64,000 nucleotides of DNA from assembly GCA_964639615.1 (NCBI GenBank), contig CAZXHH010000001.1:68092-132091 (forward strand). Direction: 5' to 3'. Both the position numbers and the translations under genes were made by a program. Every line of letters starts with the position of its first letter. Position 1 is the first letter of the stretch. Positions 1 through 64,000 of the stretch are shown here, one piece after another. The stretch comes from Candidatus Woesearchaeota archaeon (GTDB lineage: Archaea; Nanobdellota; Nanobdellia; Pacearchaeales; GW2011-AR1). A model generated the notes under the pieces. That model saw nothing but the letters and a program-made list of their open reading frames with translations, had not been told where the DNA came from and made no database searches.

Positions 1-930
1 TTTAAACCTGCAATGTCTGCTCTAACTGTTGTTATTTCCTGATTCAAATTTTCCTGTTCTAATCCTGTAGACTCTTGAATTTTTTTATTAATATTAACAA
101 TTTTTTCTTCTGAAACCTTAATGGATTCTGAAATTTTAAGAATTTCGTGTTTTATTTTTTCAATCTCCTTATTTTTCTTAGCAATTGATTCTTCAATATC
201 TTTTATTGAATTTTTTCTTTTTGTCAAATCAACATGAATAATACTTGCTTTGAATTTTTTAATATCTGCTTCAAGTTTTTTGTACTTCAATGCTTGCTGT
301 CTTTCTTTTTCCAGATTGTTAAGATAAGCTGTTCTTTCTCTTAAAATTGAAAAAACTTCTTTTTGCTTTTCTTCTGTTTTCTCAAGCTCTTTAAGTGATT
401 TCTCTTTTCTGGATTCATAAATAGATATTCCTGAAACCTCTTCAATAATTCTTCTTCTTTCTTCTGTATGCATCTTTACAAAGTTCTGAATTTCCCCCTG
501 AAGAACAATGTTAAATCCATTTGGGTCTACTCCTGCCTGTGCAAGCAAAGAGATAACTTCGTTTCTTGTTTTTGTCTCATTGTTAATCTTGTAAATACTT
601 TGTCCATTTACTCTAACTATTCTTTTAATTGATATTTCATCTACATCCATTGCAAAAACTTTATCTGAATTATCAAATACAATTTCAACCATTGCTTCTC
701 TTGCAGGTGAAGCTGCTTTTGTCCCCTGAAAAATTAAATTTCTTGCTTTTGCTGCTCTCATAGATTTAATGCTTAATCTACCTAAAACAAAACATAATGC
801 ATCTGAAATATTTGATTTACCGCTTCCATTAGGCCCTAGAATTACATTAATACCGGATGTAAAGGGTATATCTGTTTTTCTTGGAAAACTTTTGAAACCA
901 TGCATTGTTAATCTTTTTATATAAGCCATT
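1..930 (-). CDS. smc: SMC chromosome segregation ATPase, N-terminal part (continues beyond window start)
   Basis: Reverse-strand translation from ATG at 930 gives MAYIKRLTMHGFKSFPRK...GPNGSGKSNISDALCFVLG (Walker A) followed by long coiled-coil K/E-rich sequence; no stop before position 1. Confidence 0.75.
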
Positions 931-29353: not shown

Positions 29354-32300
29354 ATGGAGAAAAGGGAAAAGTGCTGGAAGTTATTTCTAATTAACATACT
29401 AATTTTAACACTAAGCTTTTCTTTTATTAGTGCTTCTACTTCACTAACAAGCATTAATGTTAATCCTTCAATTACAAATTCTAATCCAGTTCTAACTGTA
29501 ACGCTTAGTGAGAGTAATTCTTCATACCTAATTTCTGGTGCAGAATATTTTATTGATAGTGCTGGTGTAAGTGGAACAGGAAATAGTTTAACTGCTTCAG
29601 ATGGAGCATATGATGAACTAACTGAAGATACAAGTGCTAGTATAGATCTAACAGGTTTAAGTCAGGGCAGCCACACAGTTTATGCTCACGGATTAAATAA
29701 CAATTCTGAATGGGGTGCTTTTTCTACAGTCAGTTTTACAAAAGATACAATTATCCCTACACTAACCTCAATGCAGATTACTGGAGCATATGGTGCTACA
29801 AATAAAATTTCTCCTCAAAATGCAGATGGAAAGTATGATTCTGTTAGAATTATTATGAATTCAAGTGAATCTGTTGATTGGGGAAAAACATCAGTATTAA
29901 ATTCTACAGGACAGGAAATAAAATATTTCAATGGCCCTTCTGGTTATATTAATTCAAATATAGAAACTTGGGATGGAAAAAATAGTTCTGGAAATTATGT
30001 CCTTGATGGAGTTTACACAATTTATACAAATATAACAGACCAAGCAGGAAACTCAAATTTAATCTATGTGGGTTCAGTGATTATAGATAATACTGCTCCA
30101 ATTGGGACAATCACAAAAGGAACTCCTATAATAAGTAACAATGATTTAACACAAGAAATAACAATAAATTATAATGAAGTTATGGATACTTCTTATAGAC
30201 CACTGATTAACTTTACAAATAATATTGGAGAGATTAGAAGTACTGGAGGAAGTTGGAGTACAAATCAAATTTGGACAGAGAATTTCCTTGTTGAAGATGC
30301 AGATGAAGAAACAACAAACGTAATTATTTCTAGTTCATTAGCTAAAGACCTTGTTGAAAACTCAGAAGCTACTTCTATTTCAGCTTCTTTTTCTATTGAT
30401 ACAAAAGCTCCTGTTATCTCTAGTTTGCAAATTAATGCTTCAGATATAGAAATAAATAATGATAATGATGTAACAATTTCAGCAGACATTAGCGAAGGAA
30501 TGTCTACCCCAATAAATGTCTGGCTTGAAGGAAACTGGACTGGGACTTCTGCAAATAACACTTTAAGTTCTTCTTCAGGACATTATAGTTATACTATAAG
30601 CAAAACTCAACTTTCAAATCAGGAATATGTGGGATGGAGAATTTTTACAAGAGATTCTAGAGGAAATATTAGAAGTACAAGCATAAATGGTTTTTTAGTT
30701 AAAAATAGAGCTCCTTTATTTATTCCTTCTATAAATAATATGTCTTGGATTGAAGATGGAGGTTCAAAGACAATTAACTTATCTGATTATTTTTATGATT
30801 TAGATAAAGACATTCTTAATTATACTGCAACAGTTGTTTCTAACAGAGGACCAACATCAGATCCAAATCCTCTTGGGGGAATAACAGTTACAATAAACAA
30901 TGCAACAAAAATTGCAACAATTTCATCAACCTCAGATTGGAATGGTGATGGAACAATTATATTTTATGCTTGGGACTTTGTTGGAGGATACAATAGGAGC
31001 AATACAGTTTATGTAACAGTTATTGCTGATGATAATGAAGCTCCAACACTAACAAGTTCTTTGAGCCCAGTAAACTTCAGTGAAGATACAACTTTCTCTT
31101 TGCAATTATTCTGTGATCCAAATGACCCTGCACAAGTTTGCTTAAATTATAGATATGATGCATCATATATTGATTATAATTCAAATCTAACTGTATCTGT
31201 AAATCCTTCAACAGGACAGGTTACATTAAGTCCAAAATTAAATTGGAATGGGTTAACTTATGTTAAATTTCTTGCTGATGATAATGGAGTTCCTTTAGAA
31301 ACAGGAAGTTTAGTTGTTAGAGTAAATGTAACTCCTGTAAATGATAATCCTATATTAGACGCTCCTGATATAAGCATGATAGAAAATTCTGCTGCACCTT
31401 CTCCAATTAATTTGCTTTCTTATACAACGGATGTAGATAACCAATTAACTTCTATGGTTTATAATTTGGTTAGTCAATCAAATACAAGTTTAATTAATTG
31501 TAGCTTAAATGTAAATACAATAAACTGTGGAGCACCTGCATATAACAAATATGGAATTTCAGATTTAATAGTTAGTGTAATAGATGGAAGTGGTGGCAGT
31601 GATAGTCAAAAGATTACTATTGAAGTAAAAAAGAATCATGCTCCAACAATAAGATCATATTTTCCTGTTGAAAATCCTTTGATAAGAACTGGAAGGCCCC
31701 AGACTTTTGTACTTGTTGCTCAAGATGTTGATAATTTAACAGCTTTAAATTATGTCTGGAAAGTAGATGGAACAATTGTTCAGAATGGAATAGATAATAA
31801 TTATATATTTACACCTTCAGCTGAAAGCAATTATATTGTTAGTGCTGAAGTAAGTGACGAAGTTCCAAACACAGTAACAAAAAGCTGGACAGTTAAGGCA
31901 ACTACTTATCCAATTACAACAGAGTTTAATGGTGATGAAACAACAAATCTTTCAAATCCTTCTTTAGATTTAACAAATGTAAGTTTAGTTTTAGAAAATT
32001 CATACGGTAAAATTGAATTTTTATCTCCTGTTGATTTAACAAAGGCTTGGGACTTGGACAATAATGTTGAAATTTCTTCAAACGGATTAGTTGCTGTTAA
32101 TACTCAGTTATATCCTGCCTTAAATAAACCTGCAAGAATTACACTTTATGGATTGAGCTATAGTTCTTTACCTAAAGTTTATTATTCTTCGAGCTTCACA
32201 ACTTCTCCATTGACTGTTCAACAAGAATGTTCTTCACCTAGATGTAATTTACTCAATTATACTGCATTCCCTACATCTGCTGGAGAGGTTACATTTACTG

Positions 32301-33376
32301 TCTCTCAATTCAGTTCATATGCTGTTAAAGGAAGTGGAATTAATTATGATATTAACAAACTTGATTTAGACAAATGTGAAAACGGAGTCCAAGGAAATCT
32401 AACTGTTGAAATAAAAAATCCTGATGAGGATGAATCTTTTGGACCTGGAGCAGAAATTAAGATTAAATTAAAAGTATCAAACGATAATTCTTTTGATGAT
32501 AAATTCATAGCCAAAGGAATTTTATATAATTTAGATGAAGAAGATGAAGAGGAAACAGAAGAAAGTGATTCTGTTGAAATAGAAACAGAAGATTCAGAAA
32601 CAATTGAATTCTCATTAATTGTCCCAGAAGATATGGATGAAGAAGATGATTATGTTCTATTTGTTAAAGTCTATCAAAAAGGAGAAGAGGAAAATCAATG
32701 CAATTATCAAATAATTGATTTATCTCTTGAAAGAGAAGAACACAAAGTTATAATTAATGATATTGTTTCTGATTTAGAAATTAATACTGGGGAAAAATTA
32801 AACCTTGATATTGATTTAGAAAATATTGGAAGTTCAGACGAAGATGAAGCATATATCAAAATAACAAATAGCGAATTAAAATTAAATGAAAAAACAGATA
32901 CATTTGAAATTGAGAAATATGGTGACGATAATGAATTGACAATAAGCCATAGCATTTTAATTCCACAAAACGCAGCAGGAAAAGAATACACTTTAAGAGT
33001 AGAGGTATTTTATGAAGATGGAAGCACTTTCCAAAATTATATAATAAATGTAAATAATAAATCAATTATAAGTTATGTACCTACAGAAAACTTAATTTAC
33101 TTATCTTCTTCGCAGTCTTCAGGATCTGGAAGTTCTAGTCCTAAAACAATTACTGCATCAAAAACAACTATAACAGGAAAAATAACTGAAAAAGCAGAAG
33201 TTGAAGAAGAGGCTGCTCTTAATGTAAATCTAGATACAGAAGATAAAATAGCTTCTGAATTTAGTACAAATAAGAGTTCAGTAAAAGTAAATTATAATTA
33301 TCTTCCGATAGTGCTTGGTATCGGTATATTGATTTTTGTTTTTGCAATAGTATATCTTTTAATAAAGAAAAGATAA
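29354..33376 (+). CDS. Giant (1340 aa) surface protein: signal peptide, Ig/cadherin-like repeats, acidic segment, Ser/Thr linker, C-terminal TM anchor (S-layer/adhesin candidate)
   Basis: N-terminal signal peptide; PVNDNPILDAPD cadherin-like motif; dozens of N-x-S/T sequons; DEEDEEETEESD acidic run; SSSQSSGSGSSSPKT linker; LPIVLGIGILIFVFAIVYLLIKKR anchor. Confidence 0.6.
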   Translation: MEKREKCWKLFLINILILTLSFSFISASTSLTSINVNPSITNSNPVLTVTLSESNSSYLISGAEYFIDSAGVSGTGNSLTASDGAYDELTEDTSASIDLTGLSQGSHTVYAHGLNNNSEWGAFSTVSFTKDTIIPTLTSMQITGAYGATNKISPQNADGKYDSVRIIMNSSESVDWGKTSVLNSTGQEIKYFNGPSGYINSNIETWDGKNSSGNYVLDGVYTIYTNITDQAGNSNLIYVGSVIIDNTAPIGTITKGTPIISNNDLTQEITINYNEVMDTSYRPLINFTNNIGEIRSTGGSWSTNQIWTENFLVEDADEETTNVIISSSLAKDLVENSEATSISASFSIDTKAPVISSLQINASDIEINNDNDVTISADISEGMSTPINVWLEGNWTGTSANNTLSSSSGHYSYTISKTQLSNQEYVGWRIFTRDSRGNIRSTSINGFLVKNRAPLFIPSINNMSWIEDGGSKTINLSDYFYDLDKDILNYTATVVSNRGPTSDPNPLGGITVTINNATKIATISSTSDWNGDGTIIFYAWDFVGGYNRSNTVYVTVIADDNEAPTLTSSLSPVNFSEDTTFSLQLFCDPNDPAQVCLNYRYDASYIDYNSNLTVSVNPSTGQVTLSPKLNWNGLTYVKFLADDNGVPLETGSLVVRVNVTPVNDNPILDAPDISMIENSAAPSPINLLSYTTDVDNQLTSMVYNLVSQSNTSLINCSLNVNTINCGAPAYNKYGISDLIVSVIDGSGGSDSQKITIEVKKNHAPTIRSYFPVENPLIRTGRPQTFVLVAQDVDNLTALNYVWKVDGTIVQNGIDNNYIFTPSAESNYIVSAEVSDEVPNTVTKSWTVKATTYPITTEFNGDETTNLSNPSLDLTNVSLVLENSYGKIEFLSPVDLTKAWDLDNNVEISSNGLVAVNTQLYPALNKPARITLYGLSYSSLPKVYYSSSFTTSPLTVQQECSSPRCNLLNYTAFPTSAGEVTFTVSQFSSYAVKGSGINYDINKLDLDKCENGVQGNLTVEIKNPDEDESFGPGAEIKIKLKVSNDNSFDDKFIAKGILYNLDEEDEEETEESDSVEIETEDSETIEFSLIVPEDMDEEDDYVLFVKVYQKGEEENQCNYQIIDLSLEREEHKVIINDIVSDLEINTGEKLNLDIDLENIGSSDEDEAYIKITNSELKLNEKTDTFEIEKYGDDNELTISHSILIPQNAAGKEYTLRVEVFYEDGSTFQNYIINVNNKSIISYVPTENLIYLSSSQSSGSGSSSPKTITASKTTITGKITEKAEVEEEAALNVNLDTEDKIASEFSTNKSSVKVNYNYLPIVLGIGILIFVFAIVYLLIKKR

Positions 33377-34429: not shown

Positions 34430-35026
34430 ATGGAAAGTACTTATCTTATAAAACATCCTTCTCATGCACTTGTTGTTGAAGCAATTCAGACTCTCCCAGG
34501 AGAAATTGAAAGCATAAATTTGGAATTATTTGCTGATGGAGTTCAATTTCCAGAATATCCTGAAAATGAAGCAACAACACAGGGGTATTTGAATACATGC
34601 AAATATCAGAACATAATCCCATTTTCTAGCAAAAGAATAAGATGGAGCTTTAATGTCGAAGAACATATTCCTAAAAATACTGAAGCTATGCAGATGTATT
34701 TTTCTGGAGGAAGAACAAATAGGATATCTTTTGAAATATCTCAGGATTGGCAGTTTAAAGAAATTGATAAATTCAAAGAAATATTATTTCCTTCTCTTTT
34801 AAAAAATAACTACAAAATTTCATCTGGAGAAATTATTATGTCTGGCCATAAAACAGGTTCGCATCAAACTGAAGGATATGCTCCCGACTTAGCATTAAAG
34901 ATAAATTATGGTGAAAAAGGATTGGGGATTCTTGTAGACGATAATTATAGAACTGCTAAAGAAGAAAAACCAAAATATGAAAAGTGGTTTGAAGATTTAA
35001 AGACAAAATACAAAATAAGAGATTAA
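34430..35026 (+). CDS. Hypothetical protein
   Basis: 198 aa ORF, no recognisable motif. Confidence 0.35.
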   Translation: MESTYLIKHPSHALVVEAIQTLPGEIESINLELFADGVQFPEYPENEATTQGYLNTCKYQNIIPFSSKRIRWSFNVEEHIPKNTEAMQMYFSGGRTNRISFEISQDWQFKEIDKFKEILFPSLLKNNYKISSGEIIMSGHKTGSHQTEGYAPDLALKINYGEKGLGILVDDNYRTAKEEKPKYEKWFEDLKTKYKIRD

Positions 35027-35027
35027 A

Positions 35028-35363
35028 ATGGGAAGAAACAGATTGTATCAACAAGGACTTCTAGGAATAATCGAGAAACTTAAGGATAAAGAAGTTAAGT
35101 TTCATGTTAATGAATCTTGCGTCGGAGAAGTTTGTTTAATAAATAATTGTAACAGAGATGCAACACATAAGGTAGAAGAAGTTATTATAGAAGGAGACCC
35201 AAATCCATTAAGACATCCGTTAACAAATTACATATGCTGCAATCATTATAAGAAAGTTTTTGGCGCACTTGCTAAATTGCAATGTGAAAATCAAAAGCAC
35301 GATTTATATTATAAAGCAATAAAAAAAGATTATGAAACATTCTCTGATACAAGGGAAGAATAA
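35028..35363 (+). CDS. Hypothetical Cys-rich protein (7 Cys), translationally coupled to upstream gene
   Basis: CVGEVCLINNCN...YICCNHY...CEN; start 2 nt after upstream stop. Confidence 0.35.
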   Translation: MGRNRLYQQGLLGIIEKLKDKEVKFHVNESCVGEVCLINNCNRDATHKVEEVIIEGDPNPLRHPLTNYICCNHYKKVFGALAKLQCENQKHDLYYKAIKKDYETFSDTREE

Positions 35364-35421
35364 TCCCCTAGATATTTCTTAAATAAAAACATTAATAAAT
35401 TGATTTCTATTCTCTATAAAT

Positions 35422-36552
35422 ATGGGTGAAAAAGAGAAAGATGTTGTTGTTAATCCTTACCAAGTTGAAGGAGAAGTTAATTACGACAGACTTGTTAAAG
35501 AATTTGGATTAGAAAAAATTAACGAAGATATTCTAAAGAAAATTAAAAAGCAGACCGGGGAGCTTCATCCCATGCTGAGAAGAGGAATTATGTTTGCCCA
35601 TAGAGATTTAAATTGGATTTTAAATGAGTATGAAAAAGGGAATAAATTTTTCTTATATACTGGATGTGGACCTTCTGGACCAATCCATTTAGGACATTTA
35701 CAAATGTGGTATTTTACAAAATGGTTACAAGATAAATTTGATTGTGAATTGTATTTTCAGTTTACTGATGATGAAAAATTCCTATACAAAGAGAAATCTT
35801 ATGAAGAAATACAAAAATGGACTGAAGAAAATATGTTAGATGTTGCTGCAATTGGATTCAATCCAAAAAAAACACATTTTATCGTAGACACAAAACATGC
35901 TGGAATCATGTATCCTGAAGCTATAAAAATAGCAAAGAAAATAACTTTCTCAACAATTAAATCTAGTTTTGGTTTTACAGACAGCAACAATATTGGAAGT
36001 ATATTTTACACTTCTATGCAAGCTGTACCTGCAATTCTTCCTTCTGTTCTTAAAGGGAAAAATATTCCTTGTTTGATTCCATTGGGTGTTGATCAAGACC
36101 CCCACTTTAGAATTGCAAGAGATGTTTATCCTAAACTAGGATTTTTCAAACCTGCAATTATGCATAAGGTTATGTTCCCTTCTTTAGAAGGAATGAATGC
36201 TGTAATGAGTAGTTCAAAAGGTGCTGCATTAATCACTGCAAACGATACTCCGGCTGAAGTAAAAAATAAAATAAACAAATATGCTTTTTCTGGAGGAAGA
36301 GATACAATTGAAGAGCACAGAAAATTAGGGGGAAATCCAGAAATAGATGTTTCATTCCAATATTTGAAGCACTTTTTTGAAGAAGATGATAAAAAATTAG
36401 AAGAAATTGAAAAAGAGTACAAATCAGGAAAATTATCAACAGGGGAATTAAAAAAATATGCCATTGAAAAGATAAATAAATTTTTAGCTCAACATCAAGA
36501 GAGAAGAAAGAATGCTAAAAAATTAATTCCACAATATATGTTAAAAGTATAA
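35422..36552 (+). CDS. trpS: Tryptophanyl-tRNA synthetase, archaeal/eukaryal type
   Basis: GCGPSGPIHLGHL (HIGH), KMSSSKGAALI (KMSKS), 376 aa. Confidence 0.85.
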   Translation: MGEKEKDVVVNPYQVEGEVNYDRLVKEFGLEKINEDILKKIKKQTGELHPMLRRGIMFAHRDLNWILNEYEKGNKFFLYTGCGPSGPIHLGHLQMWYFTKWLQDKFDCELYFQFTDDEKFLYKEKSYEEIQKWTEENMLDVAAIGFNPKKTHFIVDTKHAGIMYPEAIKIAKKITFSTIKSSFGFTDSNNIGSIFYTSMQAVPAILPSVLKGKNIPCLIPLGVDQDPHFRIARDVYPKLGFFKPAIMHKVMFPSLEGMNAVMSSSKGAALITANDTPAEVKNKINKYAFSGGRDTIEEHRKLGGNPEIDVSFQYLKHFFEEDDKKLEEIEKEYKSGKLSTGELKKYAIEKINKFLAQHQERRKNAKKLIPQYMLKV

Positions 36553-36553
36553 G

Positions 36554-37021
36554 ATGATAAAAAGAGGGGATAAAAAAGCACAGTTTTACTTTATGGCTAC
36601 AATAATAATAGTAGCTTTGCTAATAAGCATTGTTGTTACAATTAATTATTCTTTAAGAACCAAATCTTATGAAGCAGAAGAAATTGCAAAAGATTTAACA
36701 ATTGAAACAGAAAAAGTTTTGGATTATGATACAATTCATTCAACAAATGAATTAGAAGATTTTGCAAAAGTTTATTCTAGATATGTTGGACAAGATAAAG
36801 AGATTTATTTTATTTTTGTAGATAATGATGGAAGTTCTGAAGCTTTTAGATATGTTGGAGAAAATAAAGTGGATTTTACCTCTAGTTTAGCAGTTGAAGG
36901 AAACGAAATTCAATTTATTATGGATAATAATACCTACAAATTTAATCTTAAGGAAGGAAAGAATTTGTATTTTCTTTTAATTTATGAATCTAAAGGGGAA
37001 AAATATGTATTTTCAGGATAA
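36554..37021 (+). CDS. Pilin-like protein (class III signal peptide)
   Basis: MIKRGDKKAQFYFMATIIIVALLISIVV N-terminus; first gene of pilus cluster. Confidence 0.5.
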   Translation: MIKRGDKKAQFYFMATIIIVALLISIVVTINYSLRTKSYEAEEIAKDLTIETEKVLDYDTIHSTNELEDFAKVYSRYVGQDKEIYFIFVDNDGSSEAFRYVGENKVDFTSSLAVEGNEIQFIMDNNTYKFNLKEGKNLYFLLIYESKGEKYVFSG

Positions 37022-38492
37022 AAGAAAAAGAGGAATAAGTATTGTAGTGGGGTATGTTTTATTAGTAACCTTTGCAATTGTAATCGGAGTAATAGTTTAT
37101 CAATGGATGAAAAGCTATGTCCCTCAGGAAGAAATTAATTGTCCTGATGGTTCCTCAATTTTTTTAGAAGATTATTCATATAATTGCGATACAGAAATTT
37201 TAACTTTGTATTTGAAGAATAATGGAAGATTCAGTCTTGGAGGATATTTTATTTATGTTACTAATAAAGAAGAAGCAAAATTAGCCACAATAGATATTTC
37301 AAAAAATAATACAGACCCTAATGCGATATTAGTTCCTACAGGAATTAAATTCGGAGGAATTGGTTCTTTAAATTATCTTGAAGCTGGACAGGAAGAAGTA
37401 GATTATTTTAATTTAACAGGCATAAATCAAATTTATTCTATTGAAATTTTACCTATAAGATGGCAGGAAGAAAAGAATAAACAAATTTTAGCAACTTGTA
37501 AAACAGTAAAAGTAAGAGAAGAAGTTAAATGTAAGGGAGTTGCTGGCTCATCTTCGCAATGTGTTTTCCCTGTTATAAGTCCTTGTACAGGATTAGAATG
37601 TGGAACTATTGCAAATGGAAGTTGTGGAGACATAATATGTGCACCAAATAATTGTGATGCGGGAGAACATTGTGGTGGAGGAATTTGTGTATTAGATACT
37701 TGTACTGGTGCTCCTGTTCCAAATGACAAAGATTCTCTTTGCGGAATTTATGAATGTGGATTTGTTGCAAATGGAAGCTGTGGAAATGTTTTCTGTGGAG
37801 ATAATAATGGTGCTTGCATTGCTCCTGAAACATGTGATGCTGCAACACATACATGTGAATGTGCTACAGAAAGTGATGCAACATTCTGTACAAGATTAGG
37901 AGCAGAGTGTGGAACTTTAACAGGAACAGATAATTGTGGTGTATTAAGATTAAATGTAAATTGCGGAGGATGTGATGCAGATGAAACTTGTAATAATAAT
38001 ATATGTGAGTGTGTTCCTGAAACTAATGTTCAATTCTGTACAAGATTGGGAGTGCAATGTGGAAGTTTATCTGGAACAGATAATTGTGGAAATTCTAGAA
38101 CAGTAAGCGAATGTGGGCCTTGCTCAGGAGTACAAGTTTGTAATAGTGGTATTTGTGTAACTCCTTCTACATGTAATGGAACTTGGGTAAAGTCTCCTCC
38201 AGAAACTGTTGAATGCGATGGAACTCCATTACCTCCTCATTGTCTTGCTGGATGTAGCTGTGAAGCAGGATATGATTCAAGCGGTGGTGGAGGATGTTGG
38301 ATTTCTGGAACAGGTGCAAGTTGCCAAGCTCATTGTATTTCATTAGGATACACTCAAATTCCTGTTGGAAGTTGTAGACAAAATCAAGCTCAATGTAATA
38401 GCTTCTGTCCTGGAATTATTCCTGGAGTTCTTGAAACAGGAGGAAATCAGTGGTGTACAGCTCCTACAATAAATTGTTGTTGTTGTCAATAA
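37005..38492 (+). CDS. Pilin-like protein with ~330-aa cysteine-rich tandem-repeat C-terminal domain
   Basis: MYFQDKRKRGISIVVGYVLLVTFAIVIGVIVY class III SP; >60 Cys; repeated modules CGxxANGSCGxxxC and FCTRLGxxCGxLxGTDNCG (150-nt DNA repeat 37884/38034); ends NCCCCQ. Confidence 0.55.
   Translation: MYFQDKRKRGISIVVGYVLLVTFAIVIGVIVYQWMKSYVPQEEINCPDGSSIFLEDYSYNCDTEILTLYLKNNGRFSLGGYFIYVTNKEEAKLATIDISKNNTDPNAILVPTGIKFGGIGSLNYLEAGQEEVDYFNLTGINQIYSIEILPIRWQEEKNKQILATCKTVKVREEVKCKGVAGSSSQCVFPVISPCTGLECGTIANGSCGDIICAPNNCDAGEHCGGGICVLDTCTGAPVPNDKDSLCGIYECGFVANGSCGNVFCGDNNGACIAPETCDAATHTCECATESDATFCTRLGAECGTLTGTDNCGVLRLNVNCGGCDADETCNNNICECVPETNVQFCTRLGVQCGSLSGTDNCGNSRTVSECGPCSGVQVCNSGICVTPSTCNGTWVKSPPETVECDGTPLPPHCLAGCSCEAGYDSSGGGGCWISGTGASCQAHCISLGYTQIPVGSCRQNQAQCNSFCPGIIPGVLETGGNQWCTAPTINCCCCQ
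37884..38160 (+). repeat. In-frame ~150-nt tandem coding repeat (FCTRLG...CGxxTGTDNCG modules)
   Basis: ttctgtacaagattaggagcagagtgtggaactttaacaggaacagataattgtgg (37884) vs ttctgtacaagattgggagtgcaatgtggaagtttatctggaacagataattgtgg (38034). Confidence 0.7.
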
Positions 38493-38497
38493 TTAAA

Positions 38498-39019
38498 ATG
38501 AAATCAAAAAAAGCTATTAGTGCAATTGTAGAATATGTTTTGCTTGTTACATTTGCTCTCGTAACTGGAGTTATTGTTTATTCTTTCATGAAAACATATG
38601 TTCCGCAAGAAGAATTAAACTGTCCTGATGGTTCCTCTCTTCAAATAAGCGAATATAATTACGATTGTGCAACAAACATGCTTTCAATTAAATTCACAAA
38701 TTCCGGAAGATTTAGTTTAGGCGGATATTTTATTTATACTACAAATAAACCAAATCAAGAATTAGCAACAATAGATTTAACAAAAAATAATACAGATATT
38801 AATTCGAGATTATCTCCAAATGGAATAAAATTTGGATTAATAGGAGTGGATAATTCTCTTGAGCCAAATCAAGAAGAAACAGATACATATAATTTAACAG
38901 GAATTTCTCAAGCATATTCAATACAAATTGTACCTATAAGATGGCAGGAAAAAAAGAACACTCAAATATTAGTCAGCTGTAAAAACGAAAAAATCAAAAA
39001 AACAATAGAATGTGCTTAA
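38498..39019 (+). CDS. Pilin-like paralog of the N-terminal domain of 37005..38492 (no Cys-rich extension)
   Basis: MKSKKAISAIVEYVLLVTFALVTGVIVY...YVPQEELNCPDGSS...GRFSLGGYFIY...LATID..KNNTD...PIRWQEKKN collinear with upstream gene residues 1-170. Confidence 0.55.
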   Translation: MKSKKAISAIVEYVLLVTFALVTGVIVYSFMKTYVPQEELNCPDGSSLQISEYNYDCATNMLSIKFTNSGRFSLGGYFIYTTNKPNQELATIDLTKNNTDINSRLSPNGIKFGLIGVDNSLEPNQEETDTYNLTGISQAYSIQIVPIRWQEKKNTQILVSCKNEKIKKTIECA

Positions 39020-39056
39020 TCAAAGAATTTAAAAATAATAGAGAATATAAAATAAA

Positions 39057-39539
39057 ATGAAAAAGAGGGCAAAGGGATTATCTCCTGTAATTGCAACTGT
39101 TCTTCTGGTTGCCATGGTTATCTCAATTGCGCTTATAGTATTTTTCTGGATTAAAGGTATGACTGAGGAAGCTGTTACAAAATTTGGAGATCAAAATATT
39201 CAATTAGTATGTGGCCAAGTTGCATTTGAAGCAAGCTACGACCAGGACACACTTTATATTACTAATCCTGGAAGTGTTCCAATATTTGGAATGAATGTTA
39301 AAGTTATTGGGGATGGAGAACATTCCACATTAGATTTAAGAGAAGATTCAATTACCTGGCCAGAAGCAGGTTTAAATCAGGGAGGAGTTTTTTCTAGTGA
39401 CCCTGCATCAGATTCTGAGTTAGTATTTAGTGAAGGGCAGGATATAGTTCTTGTTCCTGTACTTATTGGAGAAACGTCAACTGGAAGAAAAACTTATGTT
39501 TGTGATGAGAATCAATATGGACAAGAAATTACAATATAA
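39057..39539 (+). CDS. Archaeal type IV pilin (class III signal peptide)
   Basis: MKKRAKGLSPVIATVLLVAMVISIALIVFFW canonical archaeal prepilin N-terminus. Confidence 0.65.
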   Translation: MKKRAKGLSPVIATVLLVAMVISIALIVFFWIKGMTEEAVTKFGDQNIQLVCGQVAFEASYDQDTLYITNPGSVPIFGMNVKVIGDGEHSTLDLREDSITWPEAGLNQGGVFSSDPASDSELVFSEGQDIVLVPVLIGETSTGRKTYVCDENQYGQEITI

Positions 39540-40053
39540 GAATAAAGGGCTCTCAACTGTTATTGCTACTGTTTTACTTATTGCTTTAGTTATGGCAACT
39601 TCGACAATTGTCTGGGTCTCAACGAATAAATTAATAGACAGCAAAACCAAAGGAACTCAAGAATGTTTTAAAATAGCCTCTTCTGAAAACGTTGTTTTAA
39701 ATGAAGAGTATACTTGTTTTAACCCTACAACTGATGAAGTTCAATTTTCTTTAGATATTGGAGATGTTGAAATAGATGGTGTTGTTATTTCAATTTTAGT
39801 CGGAGGAAATTCAAAAGTTTTCACTTTGACAAATACTCTCCAAGTAATTAGCGATATAAGGCCTTACAAAGGGGTGGTTGGAGATGCAGTTAAACTTCCT
39901 GGAAAAAATGAGGGAAAAACATATATTGCGAGTGGATTTACAGAATCCGAAGTAATACAATGGATAAAAATTGCTCCTATAATCGATGATAAACAGTGTG
40001 ATATGACTGATGAAGTTTACAAAGTTGTTGATTGTAATCTGCTAGTAAATTAA
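39517..40053 (+). CDS. Archaeal type IV pilin (class III signal peptide)
   Basis: MDKKLQYKNKGLSTVIATVLLIALVMATSTIVWV; start overlaps upstream gene end by 23 nt. Confidence 0.6.
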   Translation: MDKKLQYKNKGLSTVIATVLLIALVMATSTIVWVSTNKLIDSKTKGTQECFKIASSENVVLNEEYTCFNPTTDEVQFSLDIGDVEIDGVVISILVGGNSKVFTLTNTLQVISDIRPYKGVVGDAVKLPGKNEGKTYIASGFTESEVIQWIKIAPIIDDKQCDMTDEVYKVVDCNLLVN

Positions 40054-40092
40054 GATGAAAAATATTATAAAGCAAATCTTATTTAATTTAAT

Positions 40093-40641
40093 ATGAAAAA
40101 AGGTGATTTGAAGAAATCTTTAGTTGGTTGCAAAGGGCAAGTTTGGATTGAAACTGTAATTTACCTTCTTATAGCACTGGTTATGATTAGTTTAGTATTA
40201 GCGTTTGTAAAACCTAAAATTGAAGAACTTCGAGATCAAGCAATAATTGACCAATCAATTGAAATACTAAAAAATATTGACAATTCTATACTTACAATGG
40301 GTGAAGCTGGAAACAAAAGAGTTCTTGAAATTGGAATTAAAAAAGGTACGCTTACAATTGATTCTATAAATGATAATATAATTTTTGAAATTGACAGCAG
40401 ATACTTATATACTGAAGTAGGTCAAACAGTTAATTTAGGAAATATTCAAGCAACTACAGAAGATAAAGGGAAGAACAATCTTGTAACATTAAAAAGAGAT
40501 TTTAGTGAAGAATATAATTTAACTTACAAGGGAGAAGAGAATGCTAAAACCTTTCCCAAATCATCAACTCCTTACACAATCTCTTTGACTAATAAGGGAG
40601 AGTTTTCAAATAAAATAAAGATTGATTTTGATATCCAATAA
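40093..40641 (+). CDS. Pilin-like protein (class III signal peptide)
   Basis: MKKGDLKKSLVGCKGQVWIETVIYLLIALVMISLVLAFV. Confidence 0.5.
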   Translation: MKKGDLKKSLVGCKGQVWIETVIYLLIALVMISLVLAFVKPKIEELRDQAIIDQSIEILKNIDNSILTMGEAGNKRVLEIGIKKGTLTIDSINDNIIFEIDSRYLYTEVGQTVNLGNIQATTEDKGKNNLVTLKRDFSEEYNLTYKGEENAKTFPKSSTPYTISLTNKGEFSNKIKIDFDIQ

Positions 40642-55978: not shown

Positions 55979-56383
55979 ATGAAATACGAAGAGGCTCCTG
56001 ATTTACAAATAATCGCAGAAGACATATCTAAAACCTTATTCCCTCATATTATAATGGAAAGAGTGAAATGCTATAGAAGTTATGGAAGTTCTACAAGAGG
56101 AACAATTGCCAGATGTCATGCTTTGGGAAAATTAATGCAAAAAGCAATAGGTGTTGAAGCTTATTATGCTCTTGAATTTTTATCTGCAAGATTTGATAAA
56201 TTGACTAAAGAGGATCAAATAAAAACAATAATTCATGAATTAATGCATATACCTCAGACATTTGGTGGAGGATTCAGACATCACGACCATGTTACTGAAA
56301 AAAATGTAAATCTTATGTATAAGACATATATTGCAAAGAAGGAAGGAAGAGAAATATATGAAAGAAAAGGATGGTTTAGCTAA
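55979..56383 (+). CDS. Putative zinc metallopeptidase (HExxH)
   Basis: IIHELMHIP HExxH motif; 134 aa. Confidence 0.4.
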   Translation: MKYEEAPDLQIIAEDISKTLFPHIIMERVKCYRSYGSSTRGTIARCHALGKLMQKAIGVEAYYALEFLSARFDKLTKEDQIKTIIHELMHIPQTFGGGFRHHDHVTEKNVNLMYKTYIAKKEGREIYERKGWFS

Positions 56384-60655: not shown

Positions 60656-62398
60656 ATGGTAAAAGCAGGTAAAACTTTAGGAAATTTCTTTCGTGCAGGA
60701 GCATTCTTTTTAGCTAGTGCTTTAATTCCAGCTTGTACTAGCTGTGAAAAAGAGAATTTTCCTCCTGTAGCAGGTATAGAAGTAAGCCCAAAATCAGGTG
60801 AAATCCCTCTTGAAGTGAGAGTAAAAGTCACAGGAACAGATGTAGATGGTGTAGGAGACATAAAATCATATAATCTATTTGTGAACAATGAGAAAATAAA
60901 AAGAAGTTATCCAATTGATACTACAATTACATTTACAGAATCTGGAATTGTAAATGTATATGGGCAAGTAGTTGATTCAAAAAATCAAAGTGATATGACA
61001 GAAACAAATTCTATTGAAGTTTATGGAAAGCATTTTATAGACCAATCTGCTAGCTTAACCGACGATGTAAATATAAAATATGATGCAACTCTTTTTAGAG
61101 TTCCCGAAGCAGAATTAAAAATAAAAAAAGATGGAACAGATTTTATAACAAAAAAAATAACAGATGTTAATCAAACTGGAAAGGATTATGAAAAAACTTT
61201 CACTTCATCTGATGGATTAACAAAAGGAGATTATGAATTTACATTAAAATCTGAAGATTTGGAAAAGAAATCTTCTGTTAATATTCCTAATTATAAACCA
61301 ACTGTAAGCCAAACCTCTCCTGTAAATTTTGATGAAGAAACAGATACAACAGCCTTGCTAAAATCTGATTTTAAAGATAAAAATCTTGAAGATATTAGTA
61401 ATATTAATTATACAAAAGTCACATCTATAGACGGAAAAACAAAAGCTACACTATTGCCTGGAAATAAATTGAAAATAGAAGGACTTCCAAATCAAACTGG
61501 AGCTTATCAAATTGAAATTGAATTTGGAAGTGAAACAGGAGGACTTGAAAAAACAGTTTTAACAGGGAATATAATTGAAGATAAAAGAATAGAAATTAAT
61601 CCTTTTGTTCAACCAAATGACAGCACATTGAATTGGTATGGTTCTGGAGATGTTGATAATAATAATATAGTAAATTCTCAAGATGCAACAAAAATAACTG
61701 AATTAATAAATGGAACTTATTCAAATCCTTCTGATTTAAGATTAAAAGATAGAGCAGATGTTAATGGAGATGGTGTTGTAAATAATCAAGATAAACAACT
61801 TCTTGAAAATAAATTAAATGGTATAATACCTTATCTGCCAGGAGAGTGGAATAAACTGCAAACTCGTGCAGAAAGAGAAGATTGGCTTAAGAAGATGCTT
61901 AAGATTGATGAAGTTAGTGAAATTTCACCATTTCCTGGATGGGATTGCACGCAATATGCTACACAAACTTTTATTAATTTTCATGGAGTTGGAAATCCAA
62001 CAGATATAACAAGATTTTTAGAAGCTTATCCTTATGATTTTTCAAAAAACGGAAGATTTAATTTGCCGTTGTATAAATTAAGCATAATTGAATTTGATTT
62101 AAATGATAAAATAATTTCTGGACATGCAATGAACACAATAGCATTGGGAAATAATATATTAAATTGGAATGATTTATGTAATGTTGAACCTCAATTTAAT
62201 CAAATAAATGTTCAACCAGGAGAAGCTTATCTAATTGGAATAAATTCAAGTTTATATATAAAAGGTACACCTACAAAACTAAAAGTTGGGGAAGATGTTA
62301 ATTTAAGCGAATTTATTAAATATTTAATCAAAAATAAAATTCTTAGCGATGGAATAATTTTAAATAATCCAAATCTAAAAATAATAACTCAAAGATAA
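60656..62398 (+). CDS. Secreted lipoprotein-like protein: beta-sandwich (PKD-like) repeats, two dockerin-like Ca-binding repeats, C-terminal transglutaminase-like Cys peptidase domain
   Basis: Signal LASALIPACTSC; DVDNNNIVNSQD and DVNGDGVVNNQD dockerin-type loops; GWDCTQYA (Cys), SGHAMN (His), NWNDLC (Asp) in transglutaminase-like order. Confidence 0.5.
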   Translation: MVKAGKTLGNFFRAGAFFLASALIPACTSCEKENFPPVAGIEVSPKSGEIPLEVRVKVTGTDVDGVGDIKSYNLFVNNEKIKRSYPIDTTITFTESGIVNVYGQVVDSKNQSDMTETNSIEVYGKHFIDQSASLTDDVNIKYDATLFRVPEAELKIKKDGTDFITKKITDVNQTGKDYEKTFTSSDGLTKGDYEFTLKSEDLEKKSSVNIPNYKPTVSQTSPVNFDEETDTTALLKSDFKDKNLEDISNINYTKVTSIDGKTKATLLPGNKLKIEGLPNQTGAYQIEIEFGSETGGLEKTVLTGNIIEDKRIEINPFVQPNDSTLNWYGSGDVDNNNIVNSQDATKITELINGTYSNPSDLRLKDRADVNGDGVVNNQDKQLLENKLNGIIPYLPGEWNKLQTRAEREDWLKKMLKIDEVSEISPFPGWDCTQYATQTFINFHGVGNPTDITRFLEAYPYDFSKNGRFNLPLYKLSIIEFDLNDKIISGHAMNTIALGNNILNWNDLCNVEPQFNQINVQPGEAYLIGINSSLYIKGTPTKLKVGEDVNLSEFIKYLIKNKILSDGIILNNPNLKIITQR

Positions 62399-62455
62399 TT
62401 TCAATTTAATAATAATAGAAAAACATTTATAAAACTCAATATATTGTATTAGTTA

Positions 62456-64000
62456 ATGGTTAAGAGAGGTGTAAGTAATATTTTTTTATTTGTATTTTCA
62501 ATATTCTCATTTATTTTTATTTTAAATTTTGCAACTAGTGCTTGCACTGGAACTCTAAATTGTGGTTTCATAACAGATTCAACGCAGTGCAATACAGAAT
62601 ATGGTGGTGTCTGTCATTGGGACGGTTCTAGTTGTGTAAGTAATTCTGGAGCTACTTGTGCTGATGTTACATCTACATGTGGAACTGTTGGATGCAGCGG
62701 GGGAGGATGTACAAGTGGGGCCTGTTGTGATACTTCAACTGGTCTTTTCAGACCTTCTTATTTTGCTTGTGCTACATTAAATTCTTTTTATTCATGTGCT
62801 GATGGAAATACAATAAAAATCGAGGGAACAACACAATATTGCACTGGAAGTTCTGCTACATGCGATGGTGCAAAAGTTTGGGAAGTATTTGGAACTTATC
62901 CAGATACTTGCACTAGTTATGGGGGATGTGATCAAACTCTTTTTTATCCTAATGCTTGTGTTTGTGCTAGTACTATGATAGAACCCCCTTCAATTTCTTC
63001 TTGTTCAAGCTGTTCTTCAATTGGCAGTCCTGGATGTATAGGTCTTTGTTCTGATAGTGACGGAGGCCAAAATTATCTTCAACAAGGAATAACTTCAGAT
63101 CCTTATTCAACTGTTACGGATTCATGTAGTGGTGGACAATTAGCAGAATACTGGTGCGCTACACCATATGAATCTACTGGAAATTTCTTTTCTTGTTCTA
63201 CACTCTTTGGCTCTTCTCAATATTCTTGTTTAAATGGAGCTTGCATTTGCACTCCTAATTGTGTTGGAAAAAATTGTGGTAGTGATGGATGTGGGGGATT
63301 TTGTGGGGCTAGTGGAAATTGCCCCCCAGGACAAACCTGTACTTCTGGAGTTTGTGGGGCTCCTCCTTGCGTTCCTGCTTGTTATGATGGAAAAGTTTGT
63401 GGGGATGATGGATGTGGAGGAGAGTGTCTTCCAGGATGTTCTTCTGGATATACTTGCAATGCACTTGGACAGTGTGTTTGCTCTGAAACCTGTTCTTCAT
63501 TAGGATATGAATGTGATTTACAAAGTGTTTGTGGTTCTATGGCGTATTGCGGAAGTTGTGGGTCTGGAGAAGAGTGCAATGGAGGATTATGCGTTCCTGA
63601 AACTACTTTCTGCGGTGATGGAAGTTGTAATGGTGTTGAAACTTGTACAACTTGCGCTTCTGATTGTGGGTCTTGCGCAGCAATAGACACTTATTGGGTA
63701 ATAGATAGTTATGAAAAAAATACAGGGGATATTGTAAAAATAAGAAGTGGAAGTTCTATTGTTATGTATGTCCAAGATGATTTTGGATATTCTGCTGGAT
63801 ATAATAATGTAAGATTTAATATTTTTAAAGAAGGAAGTAGCACACCTCTTAATTCAAATCCAATTACAGGGTTTGTAGATAGTTATGGTAGAATTGGCTC
63901 AAATTGGTATTATGTTGATTCATCTTTTTTAACTGCTCTTGGTTCAGGAGGGAATGTTTATTTTGTTATGTCAATTCCTGGAACTTCAATTTCAATAACA
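62456..64000 (+). CDS. Secreted cysteine-rich repeat protein, 3' end beyond window
   Basis: Hand translation from ATG 62456: signal peptide IFLFVFSIFSFIFILNFATSA, then >60 Cys in 515 aa with repeated NCGSDGCGGFCG / VCGDDGCGGEC modules; no stop before window end (not in ORF track). Confidence 0.55.
   Translation, partial: MVKRGVSNIFLFVFSIFSFIFILNFATSACTGTLNCGFITDSTQCNTEYGGVCHWDGSSCVSNSGATCADVTSTCGTVGCSGGGCTSGACCDTSTGLFRPSYFACATLNSFYSCADGNTIKIEGTTQYCTGSSATCDGAKVWEVFGTYPDTCTSYGGCDQTLFYPNACVCASTMIEPPSISSCSSCSSIGSPGCIGLCSDSDGGQNYLQQGITSDPYSTVTDSCSGGQLAEYWCATPYESTGNFFSCSTLFGSSQYSCLNGACICTPNCVGKNCGSDGCGGFCGASGNCPPGQTCTSGVCGAPPCVPACYDGKVCGDDGCGGECLPGCSSGYTCNALGQCVCSETCSSLGYECDLQSVCGSMAYCGSCGSGEECNGGLCVPETTFCGDGSCNGVETCTTCASDCGSCAAIDTYWVIDSYEKNTGDIVKIRSGSSIVMYVQDDFGYSAGYNNVRFNIFKEGSSTPLNSNPITGFVDSYGRIGSNWYYVDSSFLTALGSGGNVYFVMSIPGTSISIT

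Follow-up and report, generated by a model that had tools for sequence, protein, structure and literature searches.

The window analysed here is a stretch of 64,000 nucleotides from a Candidatus Woesearchaeota archaeon (assembly GCA_964639615.1, contig CAZXHH010000001.1, positions 68,092 to 132,091), and it ends inside an open reading frame (ORF) that starts at ATG 62456 and runs for 515 codons to the last base. The product, hereafter the target protein, contains 58 cysteines in 515 residues (11.3%), while the median across the 36 long ORFs of the window is 0.9%; the sole other cysteine-rich long ORF encodes a fusion of a type IV pilin-like domain with a cysteine-rich ectodomain (10.4% cysteine), hereafter the pilin fusion. 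The target protein is a chain of small, independently reused cysteine-rich modules, placed after a Sec-type signal peptide and followed by a cysteine-free domain, and one of these modules, termed SLGY or B, is, as judged by profile comparison, homologous to modules of the pilin fusion encoded 24 kb upstream. The mosaic build is indicated by the fact that each block has its own set of homologues. The features are listed in Table 1.

Table 1. Features of the target gene, the pilin fusion gene and the adjacent dockerin gene, in window coordinates (AF2, AlphaFold2; pLDDT, predicted local distance difference test)
Feature	Residues	Cys	Position	Strand	Remarks
Candidate archaeal TATA box TTTATAAA			62426..62433	+	Centre about 26 nt 5′ of the target ATG; read from sequence
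Target gene, 5′ part (515 codons)	1-515	58	62456..64000	+	3′ end outside the window; no stop in translation
Sec-type signal peptide	1-28		62456..62539	+	Predicted cleavage after ATSA; N-terminus MVKRGVSN, then IFLFVFSIFSFIFIL, then NFATSA/C
M1, N-terminal cap	29-84	8	62540..62707	+	Alignment A3 with P0131, P0143, P0155; AF2 pLDDT about 73-90
M2, C-TSG-x-CCD ... YC(S/T)GSSxxC-DG	85-172		62708..62971	+	Remotely disintegrin-like, inserted hairpin; W after CDG stretch
Linker, Ser/Pro-rich	173-193	2	62972..63034	+	
M3, C-x-DSDGG ... EYxC ... GAC	194-264		63035..63247	+	Exhaustive HMMER search
A1, DGCGG module	265-300	8	63248..63355	+	29.6 bits; AF2 pLDDT about 85-94
A2, DGCGG module	305-340	8	63368..63475	+	20.2 bits; AF2 confident
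B, SLGY module, C-x3-C-SSLGY-x-C ... CG-x-C	342-379	8	63479..63592	+	33.4 bits (residues 346-379)
C module FCGDGSCNGVETCTTCASDCGSC (CGDGSCNGVETCTTCASDCGSC), CGDGxC cap	385-407	6	63608..63676	+	AF2 low confidence
D, Cys-free domain	408-515+	0	63677..64000	+	Beta-rich by eye; cut at window end
Pilin fusion			36984..38492	+	Class III-type signal, pilin-like N-domain, Cys-rich ectodomain; in type IV pilus locus; likely start ATG 37005 as in P0196
Pilin fusion, two shorter divergent 8-Cys modules	193-235 and 240-291	8 each	37560..37856	+	Cys spacing; the modules earlier likened to DGCGG units
Pilin fusion, two B′-type modules, PE(S/T)D-x2-FC-x-R-x-G-x-x-CG ... DNCG ... CG-x-C	293-343 and 343-391		37860..38156	+	52.1 and 51.9 bits against bacterial-homologue profile
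Dockerin gene, lipoprotein-like secreted protein with type I dockerin			60656..62398	+	PF00404, E 1.2e-7, above cutoff; ends 57 nt 5′ of the target

The target gene is a real open reading frame cut by the window end

The preliminary description of this DNA had noted the frame as one missing from the ORF list, with a signal peptide and a very cysteine-rich product, and this was borne out: the frame is real, and it is missing from the list only because it runs off the window end. Given the local base composition, a run of 515 codons would stay free of stops by chance with P about 1.5e-16. The start is unambiguous because an in-frame TAG (62450-62452) sits one codon before the ATG. A promoter of its own and a leaderless transcript would fit the TATA-like element upstream (Table 1), which is weak evidence because the intergenic DNA is very AT-rich.

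No close orthologue of the target turned up among about 5.8 billion clusters and 1.8 billion representatives, the last 50 bases of the window had no exact match in genome or metagenome contig collections, and the neighbouring proteins were absent from the records. A rival reading takes the frame for a pseudogene in decay or a chimera of the assembly. It would agree with the 3′ end lying outside the window, and with the lack of any near-identical target protein in collections that do contain a pilin fusion 98% identical to that of the window. This explanation is barely credible, given 515 codons without a stop, module-defining cysteines that are all intact and score well against profiles made from other proteins, and an unambiguous start with a promoter-like element. 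The RtcB gene of the window has its nearest counterparts (identity up to 74%) in metagenome-assembled genomes (MAGs) of Woesearchaeota, Pacearchaeota and Nanoarchaeota, which supports the assignment to DPANN archaea made earlier. The frame most probably represents the opening 515 codons of a functional gene, carried by a DPANN archaeon similar to Woesearchaeota.

Two DGCGG modules of a widespread extracellular family

In a first database search, homologues spanned only residues 255-410 of the target; at least 323 database proteins matched at E <= 1e-3, and the best homologues reached E 3e-34. A profile built from 400 DGCGG modules of other proteins, all from the target's database matches, gave the scores listed for A1 and A2, and none of 2000 shuffled sequences reached the 29.6 bits of A1 (best shuffle 8.4). 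Both modules carry the family pattern C-x3-C-x4-CG-x-DG-CGG-x-CG-x-C-x5-C-x4-5-C and score above the shuffles, with slight deviations at CG-x-C (CGASGNC and CLPGC); the eight-cysteine consensus of the family is CVPSCEGKECGDDGCGGSCGSCEAGETCSEGQC. The repeated units quoted in the preliminary description are both present (CGSDGCGGFCG at residue 274 and CGDDGCGGEC at residue 315), but there are just these two DGCGG units and no long array.

The core motif occurs in 118 of the 120 best matches, the source names of which include Myxococcaceae, Myxococcales, Deltaproteobacteria, Proteobacteria and "archaeon". A hydrophobic signal is found at the N-terminus of 86 of these 118 proteins, and a C-terminal transmembrane (TM) segment with a basic tail in 24. 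Repeat proteins such as P0001 (hypothetical protein WC915_06880 of an archaeon MAG), P0012 ("M23 family metallopeptidase" of a Proteobacteria MAG) and those of Myxococcaceae and Myxococcales share with the target the eight-cysteine module, the secreted context and the tandem use. They differ in that most carry several copies (up to 11 by a stricter whole-module pattern), whereas the target carries two and adds the M1-M2-M3 block. The Pfam domains that accompany DGCGG arrays include M23 peptidase, PPC, FGE-sulfatase, TIG, glycoside hydrolases and trypsin. Where individual proteins were inspected, the array separates functional domains from an anchor (M23 peptidase, array and anchor in P0012; FDP/PPC-type domains, array and, directly after it, a JDVT-CTERM sorting domain in P0002), which suggests a spacer or stalk role.

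The same partners bear on the main rival explanation, in which the cysteine-rich modules form a delivery arm and the unseen C-terminus carries a hydrolase or toxin directed against the envelope of another cell or against polymers, in which case the target would be no adhesin in itself. Many DGCGG-array proteins have catalytic domains: P0012 and P0016 contain M23, and among the others there are Pfam entries for glycoside hydrolase, trypsin and FGE-sulfatase. The modules of P0001 are followed by a region that matches the N-terminus of the lacto-N-biosidase LnbX (E 2e-12), an ORF of locus L033 joins M23, CARDB, M2-like modules, a DGCGG module and an anchor, and in an ORF of locus L034 an M2-like module is accompanied by RHS repeats and Colicin D. 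However, no catalytic domain was found among the 515 visible residues of the target, and its closest complete archaeal relatives, in L009 and L015, end in beta-sandwich domains and a TM anchor with no recognised enzyme, so that a delivery arm is considered unlikely.

Neither Pfam nor NCBIfam gave any family for the target at E <= 1, TIGR02232 included, and the Pfam scan gave no cohesin match for it; Pfam likewise lacked families for these modules in ten representative, repeat-rich homologues. TIGR02232, the Myxococcus cysteine-rich acidic repeat, resembles the target modules in being a cysteine-rich repeat of secreted proteins in similar organisms, and it occurs in the relative L015 (E 1e-9), but it does not match the target, and its motif is a different one. 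Searches of Protein Data Bank (PDB) sequences with the target and its profiles returned nothing significant (Notch1 LNR at E 2.6), and a literature search for DGCGG modules, cysteine-rich Woesearchaeota proteins, DPANN disintegrins and DPANN surface proteins returned nothing relevant.

The SLGY module links the target to the pilin fusion

The preliminary description had proposed that the target and the pilin fusion share a family of cysteine modules, and had named a lack of significant profile-profile similarity between the two cysteine-rich regions as the finding that would speak against it. Significant similarity was found, and it lies in module B: hhalign aligned the B profile with that of the pilin-type B′ module family at 97% probability (E 1.3e-10), with reversed controls below 1%. 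Residues 346-379 of the target carry the B family pattern C-x2-4-[LYFM]G-x2-CG-x3-8-CG-x3-9-CG-x-C-x3-8-C-x3-7-C and score above shuffles. The B profile, built from 15 modules of the target's database matches that were picked by a regular expression which pilin modules also satisfy, gave 16.1 bits on residues 302-341 of the pilin fusion (reached by none of 2000 shuffles, maximum 12.5) and 7.8 bits on residues 352-391. In a six-frame scan of the window with this profile, only two ORFs matched, the target (E 8e-10) and the pilin fusion (E 2e-4). BLASTP of the target against the pilin fusion gave 35.8 bits, a score that none of 2000 shuffles of the pilin ectodomain reached (maximum 28.5).

The proposal did not hold for the DGCGG units. 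The DGCGG profile gave at best 4.8 bits on the pilin ectodomain, a score matched by 29 of 2000 shuffles, and gave -6.2 and 1.9 bits on residues 200-235 and 264-291, respectively. The spacing C-G-x3-4-G-x-C-G-x3-C, which had been said to be echoed between the two proteins, occurs at residues 206 and 258 of the pilin fusion, whereas inspection did not reveal it in the two DGCGG units. As for the relation of A to the other types, hhalign aligned A with B at 87% (E 4e-6) and A with B′ at 64% (E 6.5e-5). The link between A and B′ is not established because this value is no better than the control of A against reversed A, which is palindromic (49%, E 1.7e-4); the other reversed controls stayed below 5%. 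Other observations connect the types: in MAFFT alignments, the A modules align onto B column by column with small loop insertions, and protein P0061 mixes A, B and B′ modules within one array.

The closest relative of the module region is P0001, which matched residues 328-410 of the target with 59% identity over 83 residues (E 6e-26). P0001 and P0021, both archaeal, have pilin-type N-termini (sub-threshold arch_flag_Nterm matches) followed by B and CGDG modules arranged as in the target; P0001 additionally has two DGCGG modules, giving the order of two DGCGG, SLGY and CGDGxC modules that is seen in the target. The CGDG motif of module C is at the equivalent position in both proteins and was found in 8 of the 120 matches; from this arrangement, module C may be a junction or cap ahead of the next domain. 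Domain D was also compared with an "AYW" beta-sandwich that follows CGDG modules in relatives, and membership was rejected (profile score -0.8 bits).

A search with the pilin ectodomain returned 24 proteins, mostly bacterial B′ arrays, among them a 98% identical copy from Logan run SRR16308653; the results suggest that the hit lists of the target and pilin-ectodomain searches do not overlap. The pilin fusion and its bacterial relatives (e.g. P0204 of Lujinxingia vulgaris) share with the target eight-cysteine modules of the superfamily of B, which co-occur with DGCGG modules in single arrays. They differ from the target modules in having longer loops and an extra N-terminal "PESD-x2-F" and in being invisible to the DGCGG profile. 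The near-identical copy comes from locus L026, a 6.5 kb contig of SRR16308653 that corresponds to window positions 34430-40641 and represents a near-identical strain; its protein P0196 begins at the second ATG, equivalent to 37005, and its ectodomain shares 98% identity with that of the window's pilin fusion. The C-terminus of the pilin fusion (38300-38489) ends in ...TAPTINCCCCQ, with four cysteines in a row before the stop, and this ending is kept in P0196.

Signal peptide and N-terminal modules

The hydrophobic core of the target N-terminus is about 15-17 residues long and is followed by a T-S-A site of the signal peptidase I type that is kept in relatives; P0131, P0143, P0155, L008 and L009 show the same layout of a hydrophobic core, (V/I/T)-S-A or A-N-A, and a cysteine within a few residues. 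The alternative that MVKRG/VSNIFLF... is a class III prepilin signal, which would make the target a second pilin-like fibre subunit, draws on the K-R-G ahead of the hydrophobic stretch, superficially like KRKRG/ISIVV of the pilin fusion, and on the fact that P0001, the closest relative of the module region, is itself a pilin fusion. We consider it most implausible: in the target and five relatives the short core is followed by a (T/V/I)-S-A or A-x-A site before the first mature cysteine, no Pilin_N or arch_flag_Nterm (archaellin N-terminal) profile in Pfam or NCBIfam matched the target, and the gene lies outside the pilus locus. The combination of features of a class III pilin-type N-terminus (a short basic leader ending in G/A, a hydrophobic segment of at least 20 residues retained in the mature protein, and a profile match) does not appear to be present, and the cleavage site given in Table 1 is a predicted one. 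The two proteins would differ in export, by a class III signal for the pilin fusion and a Sec signal for the target.

A profile of M1 and M2, built from the relatives in alignment A3 with the window row left out, gave 96.1 bits on residues 29-164. An exhaustive HMMER search with residues 28-265 found separate relatives for M1, M2 and M3; a word-indexed search with residues 29-263 and 408-515 found no homologues, and a protein-based metagenome scan with residues 29-265 returned solely remote M2 relatives (30-43% identical). Close relatives of the M1-M2-M3 block are few and all short. M3 occurs in tandem arrays in many proteins, e.g. P0122 and P0127, for which no Pfam family was found. M2 relatives are present in many secreted proteins, often in tandem, such as P0129 (with RCC1 repeats) and ORFs of L029, L032 and L033.

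The likeness of M2 to disintegrins (PF00200) was seen through its relatives. An ORF of L031 passes the Pfam threshold for PF00200 (E 7e-14), and the matched stretch covers its CTSGACCD...F...C...C...CTGSSATCP units. Against five PF00200-positive units of L031 and L035, the M2 profile aligned at 96.7% probability (E 3e-10; reversed control 1.1%), with a shallow template (effective number of sequences, Neff, 1.6), and 11 of 23 M2 relatives gave weak sub-threshold PF00200 matches (best E 0.015). M2 shares with the Pfam-positive prokaryotic repeat units the core C-x-x-G-x-CC-[DN] ... F-[KR] ... C ... C-[ST]-G-S-S-x-x-C. In animal disintegrins the integrin-binding motif is carried on a loop; M2 differs in having a longer insert at that loop and, after it, a W-x2-W segment with extra Cys. 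From these comparisons, M2 is best called a remote disintegrin-like module with an inserted hairpin, rather than an established member of PF00200. The AF2 model of residues 28-194, made with alignment A3, had a pLDDT of 71 and was good over model residues 10-125.

Two further observations concern M2. An ORF of L034 (2-2257, forward strand) encodes a polymorphic toxin, with CBM96, RHS repeats and a C-terminal Colicin D, that carries one M2-like "CTSGACCD..." module; the M2-like module thus also travels with toxin-delivery proteins. Residues 124-162 of the target (62825-62941) resemble a short repeat of large Bacteroidota-type repeat proteins, C-x-GSS-YTLP-x-G ... GTY-x-DTL-x-S-x-x-GCDS, as either a shared hairpin motif or a composition effect. 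The match of P0121 to these residues (E 1.6e-26) was not used as evidence, since its score sums 16 short repeats.

Predicted structure of the module region and state of the cysteines

Residues 258-412 were modelled with AF2 from a 51-row alignment (alignment A1) at a mean pLDDT of 82.7, with module C poorly defined. The model consists mainly of beta-hairpins: B has two, and A1 and A2 have one apiece, at the C-terminal end. This shape favours a stalk. As a working analogy, the region resembles EGF-like, laminin-EGF, LDLR class A and Notch LNR modules, which are small disulfide-rich beta-hairpin modules used in tandem as rigid extracellular spacers. Membership in the EGF, LDLR-A or LNR families is unsupported because there is no significant fold or profile likeness (best structural match E 0.3; hidden Markov model match E 2.6) and both the number and the spacing of the cysteines differ.

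The cysteines number eight each in M1, A1, A2 and B, six in C, and 20 jointly in M2, the linker and M3, so the total of 58 is even. Binding of metals by these cysteines, in a metallothionein-like or Fe-S/Zn-ribbon-like manner and for metal sequestration or extracellular redox, would be in keeping with the 11% cysteine content, the many CG-x-C and C-x2-C spacings, and an organism that is probably anaerobic, judging by its DPANN affiliation. It is nevertheless highly improbable. The same modules abound in proteins secreted by Myxococcota-type bacteria, a group with many aerobic members; in the best-defined modules the cysteines are even in number and fixed in spacing, typical of disulfide knots; and the conserved residues other than cysteine are Gly/Asp turns, with no His and no Zn-ribbon-type CxxC pairs.

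Genomic neighbourhood and syntenic relatives

Kae1, RtcB, an Obg-like GTPase and a P-type ATPase are encoded in the window, which also has a type IV pilus locus (archaeal Pilin_N, T2SSE ATPase) to which the target does not belong. For the dockerin protein encoded upstream of the target, the window yielded no cohesin partner. Three related Woesearchaeota loci, L006, L007 and L008, keep the gene order Kae1, two small ORFs, RtcB on the opposite strand and a homologue of the dockerin protein. Beyond the dockerin homologue, L007 and L008 have other cysteine-rich (10-11%) secreted proteins with different modules, and the genes at that place in L006 are not cysteine-rich.

These neighbours bear on the possibility that the target is a structural component of the envelope, S-layer-associated or of a sheath, serving mechanical stability rather than specific binding. 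The target is secreted, repetitive and rigid-looking, and its neighbourhood is of the housekeeping kind (Kae1, RtcB). A core envelope protein would, however, be expected to be conserved, whereas the module composition of the target is unique, without a close orthologue among the sequences searched, and the syntenic slot is filled by different genes in relatives; a structural role of this kind is therefore improbable.

The proteins at L007:2-1300 and L008:5833-7875 (both reverse strand), together with L009, L015 and L017, form a distinct Woesearchaeota family of cysteine-rich secreted proteins with "...TNAHG/TNAHA..." and "YxxCCDF" repeats, of which the L007 and L008 copies occupy the slot of the target. 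The complete-ended relatives L009, L015 and P0125 have a TM helix and a K/R tail at the C-terminus, which makes such an anchor plausible for the target. In L009:6110-7783 (reverse strand) and L015:1-2328 (forward strand), a "CPAQI(Q/K)" motif lies directly before the TM helix and the Lys/Arg-rich tail and may be an unrecognised C-terminal sorting signal.

Elsewhere in the window, an ORF at 55979-56383 (forward strand) with a "putative phage metallopeptidase" domain (PF18894, E 7e-20) lies amid housekeeping genes. A 1340-residue ORF at 29354-33376 (forward strand) has weak matches to the Nup98-type S59 autopeptidase (27.0 bits, cutoff 28.4), FlgD Ig-like and Rib domains, and may encode another large surface protein that is possibly self-cleaving.

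Discussion

The target protein is probably a secreted DPANN mosaic protein in which a disulfide-braced stalk displays binding modules on the cell surface, with a possible role in cell contact. In such a protein, the cysteines would pair as disulfides inside each module, and the DGCGG and SLGY modules would form short rigid beta-hairpin units that serve as a stalk or spacer. The unseen C-terminal part would end in a membrane anchor, as in relatives, and, given a C-terminal anchor, M1-M3 would be held off the cell as the binding end. The protein may then act in surface contact, by adhesion to a host cell or a particle, as one member of a mix-and-match repertoire that would also be mounted on type IV pilins in the same genome and in related archaea. 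Adhesion or host contact is suggested by the predicted extracellular site, the disintegrin-like module, the pilin-fused relatives, the variable cysteine-rich genes at the syntenic position and the DPANN lifestyle.

Several points weigh against this explanation. The target is cut at position 64000, so that the anchor and the terminal domain fall outside the visible part, and domain D gave no homologues in a word-indexed search or in jackhmmer against all fetched sequences. The target's own sequence did not match PF00200 at E <= 10, the M2 profile matched no PDB sequence, and Foldseek with the model of residues 28-194 found nothing significant in the PDB (best E 1.9) and no disintegrin structure. 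Foldseek with residues 258-412 also found nothing significant, whether in the PDB (EGF repeats of LRP2, LDLR and Notch at E >= 0.3, probability <= 0.16 and template modelling score <= 0.30) or among viral models (adenovirus fibre shafts at E >= 0.087). In 25 related loci around RtcB, neither DGCGG nor SLGY modules were detected at E <= 0.01, so the module repertoire is not uniform among relatives. Finally, oxidation of extracellular cysteines is in question for a DPANN archaeon that is probably anaerobic.

A broader proposal, which we regard as doubtful, is that the DGCGG, SLGY and "FC-x-R-x-G" modules constitute one unrecognised stalk superfamily exchanged between bacteria and archaea. In DPANN archaea, these stalks would have been grafted on type IV pilins and on Sec-exported proteins with disintegrin-like and DSDGG tips, giving a combinatorial and fast-changing set for host recognition, with variable cysteine-rich genes in a conserved slot beside the RtcB and dockerin genes.

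The result itself is modest: the target joins a widespread but uncurated group of extracellular cysteine-repeat proteins. It is plausibly a surface protein, of a general type already familiar, and the window contains just its 5′ part. DPANN archaea presumably live in attachment to other cells, and to our knowledge few of their cell-contact molecules are known; the target and the pilin fusion provide two candidate contact proteins made from shared parts. The DGCGG, SLGY/B′, CGDGxC, DSDGG and "CCD" disintegrin-like modules are very common in prokaryotes, yet the resources searched contained no curated family, structure or publication for them. Defining these modules would allow better annotation of secreted proteins now called "hypothetical", of which there are hundreds and probably many more.

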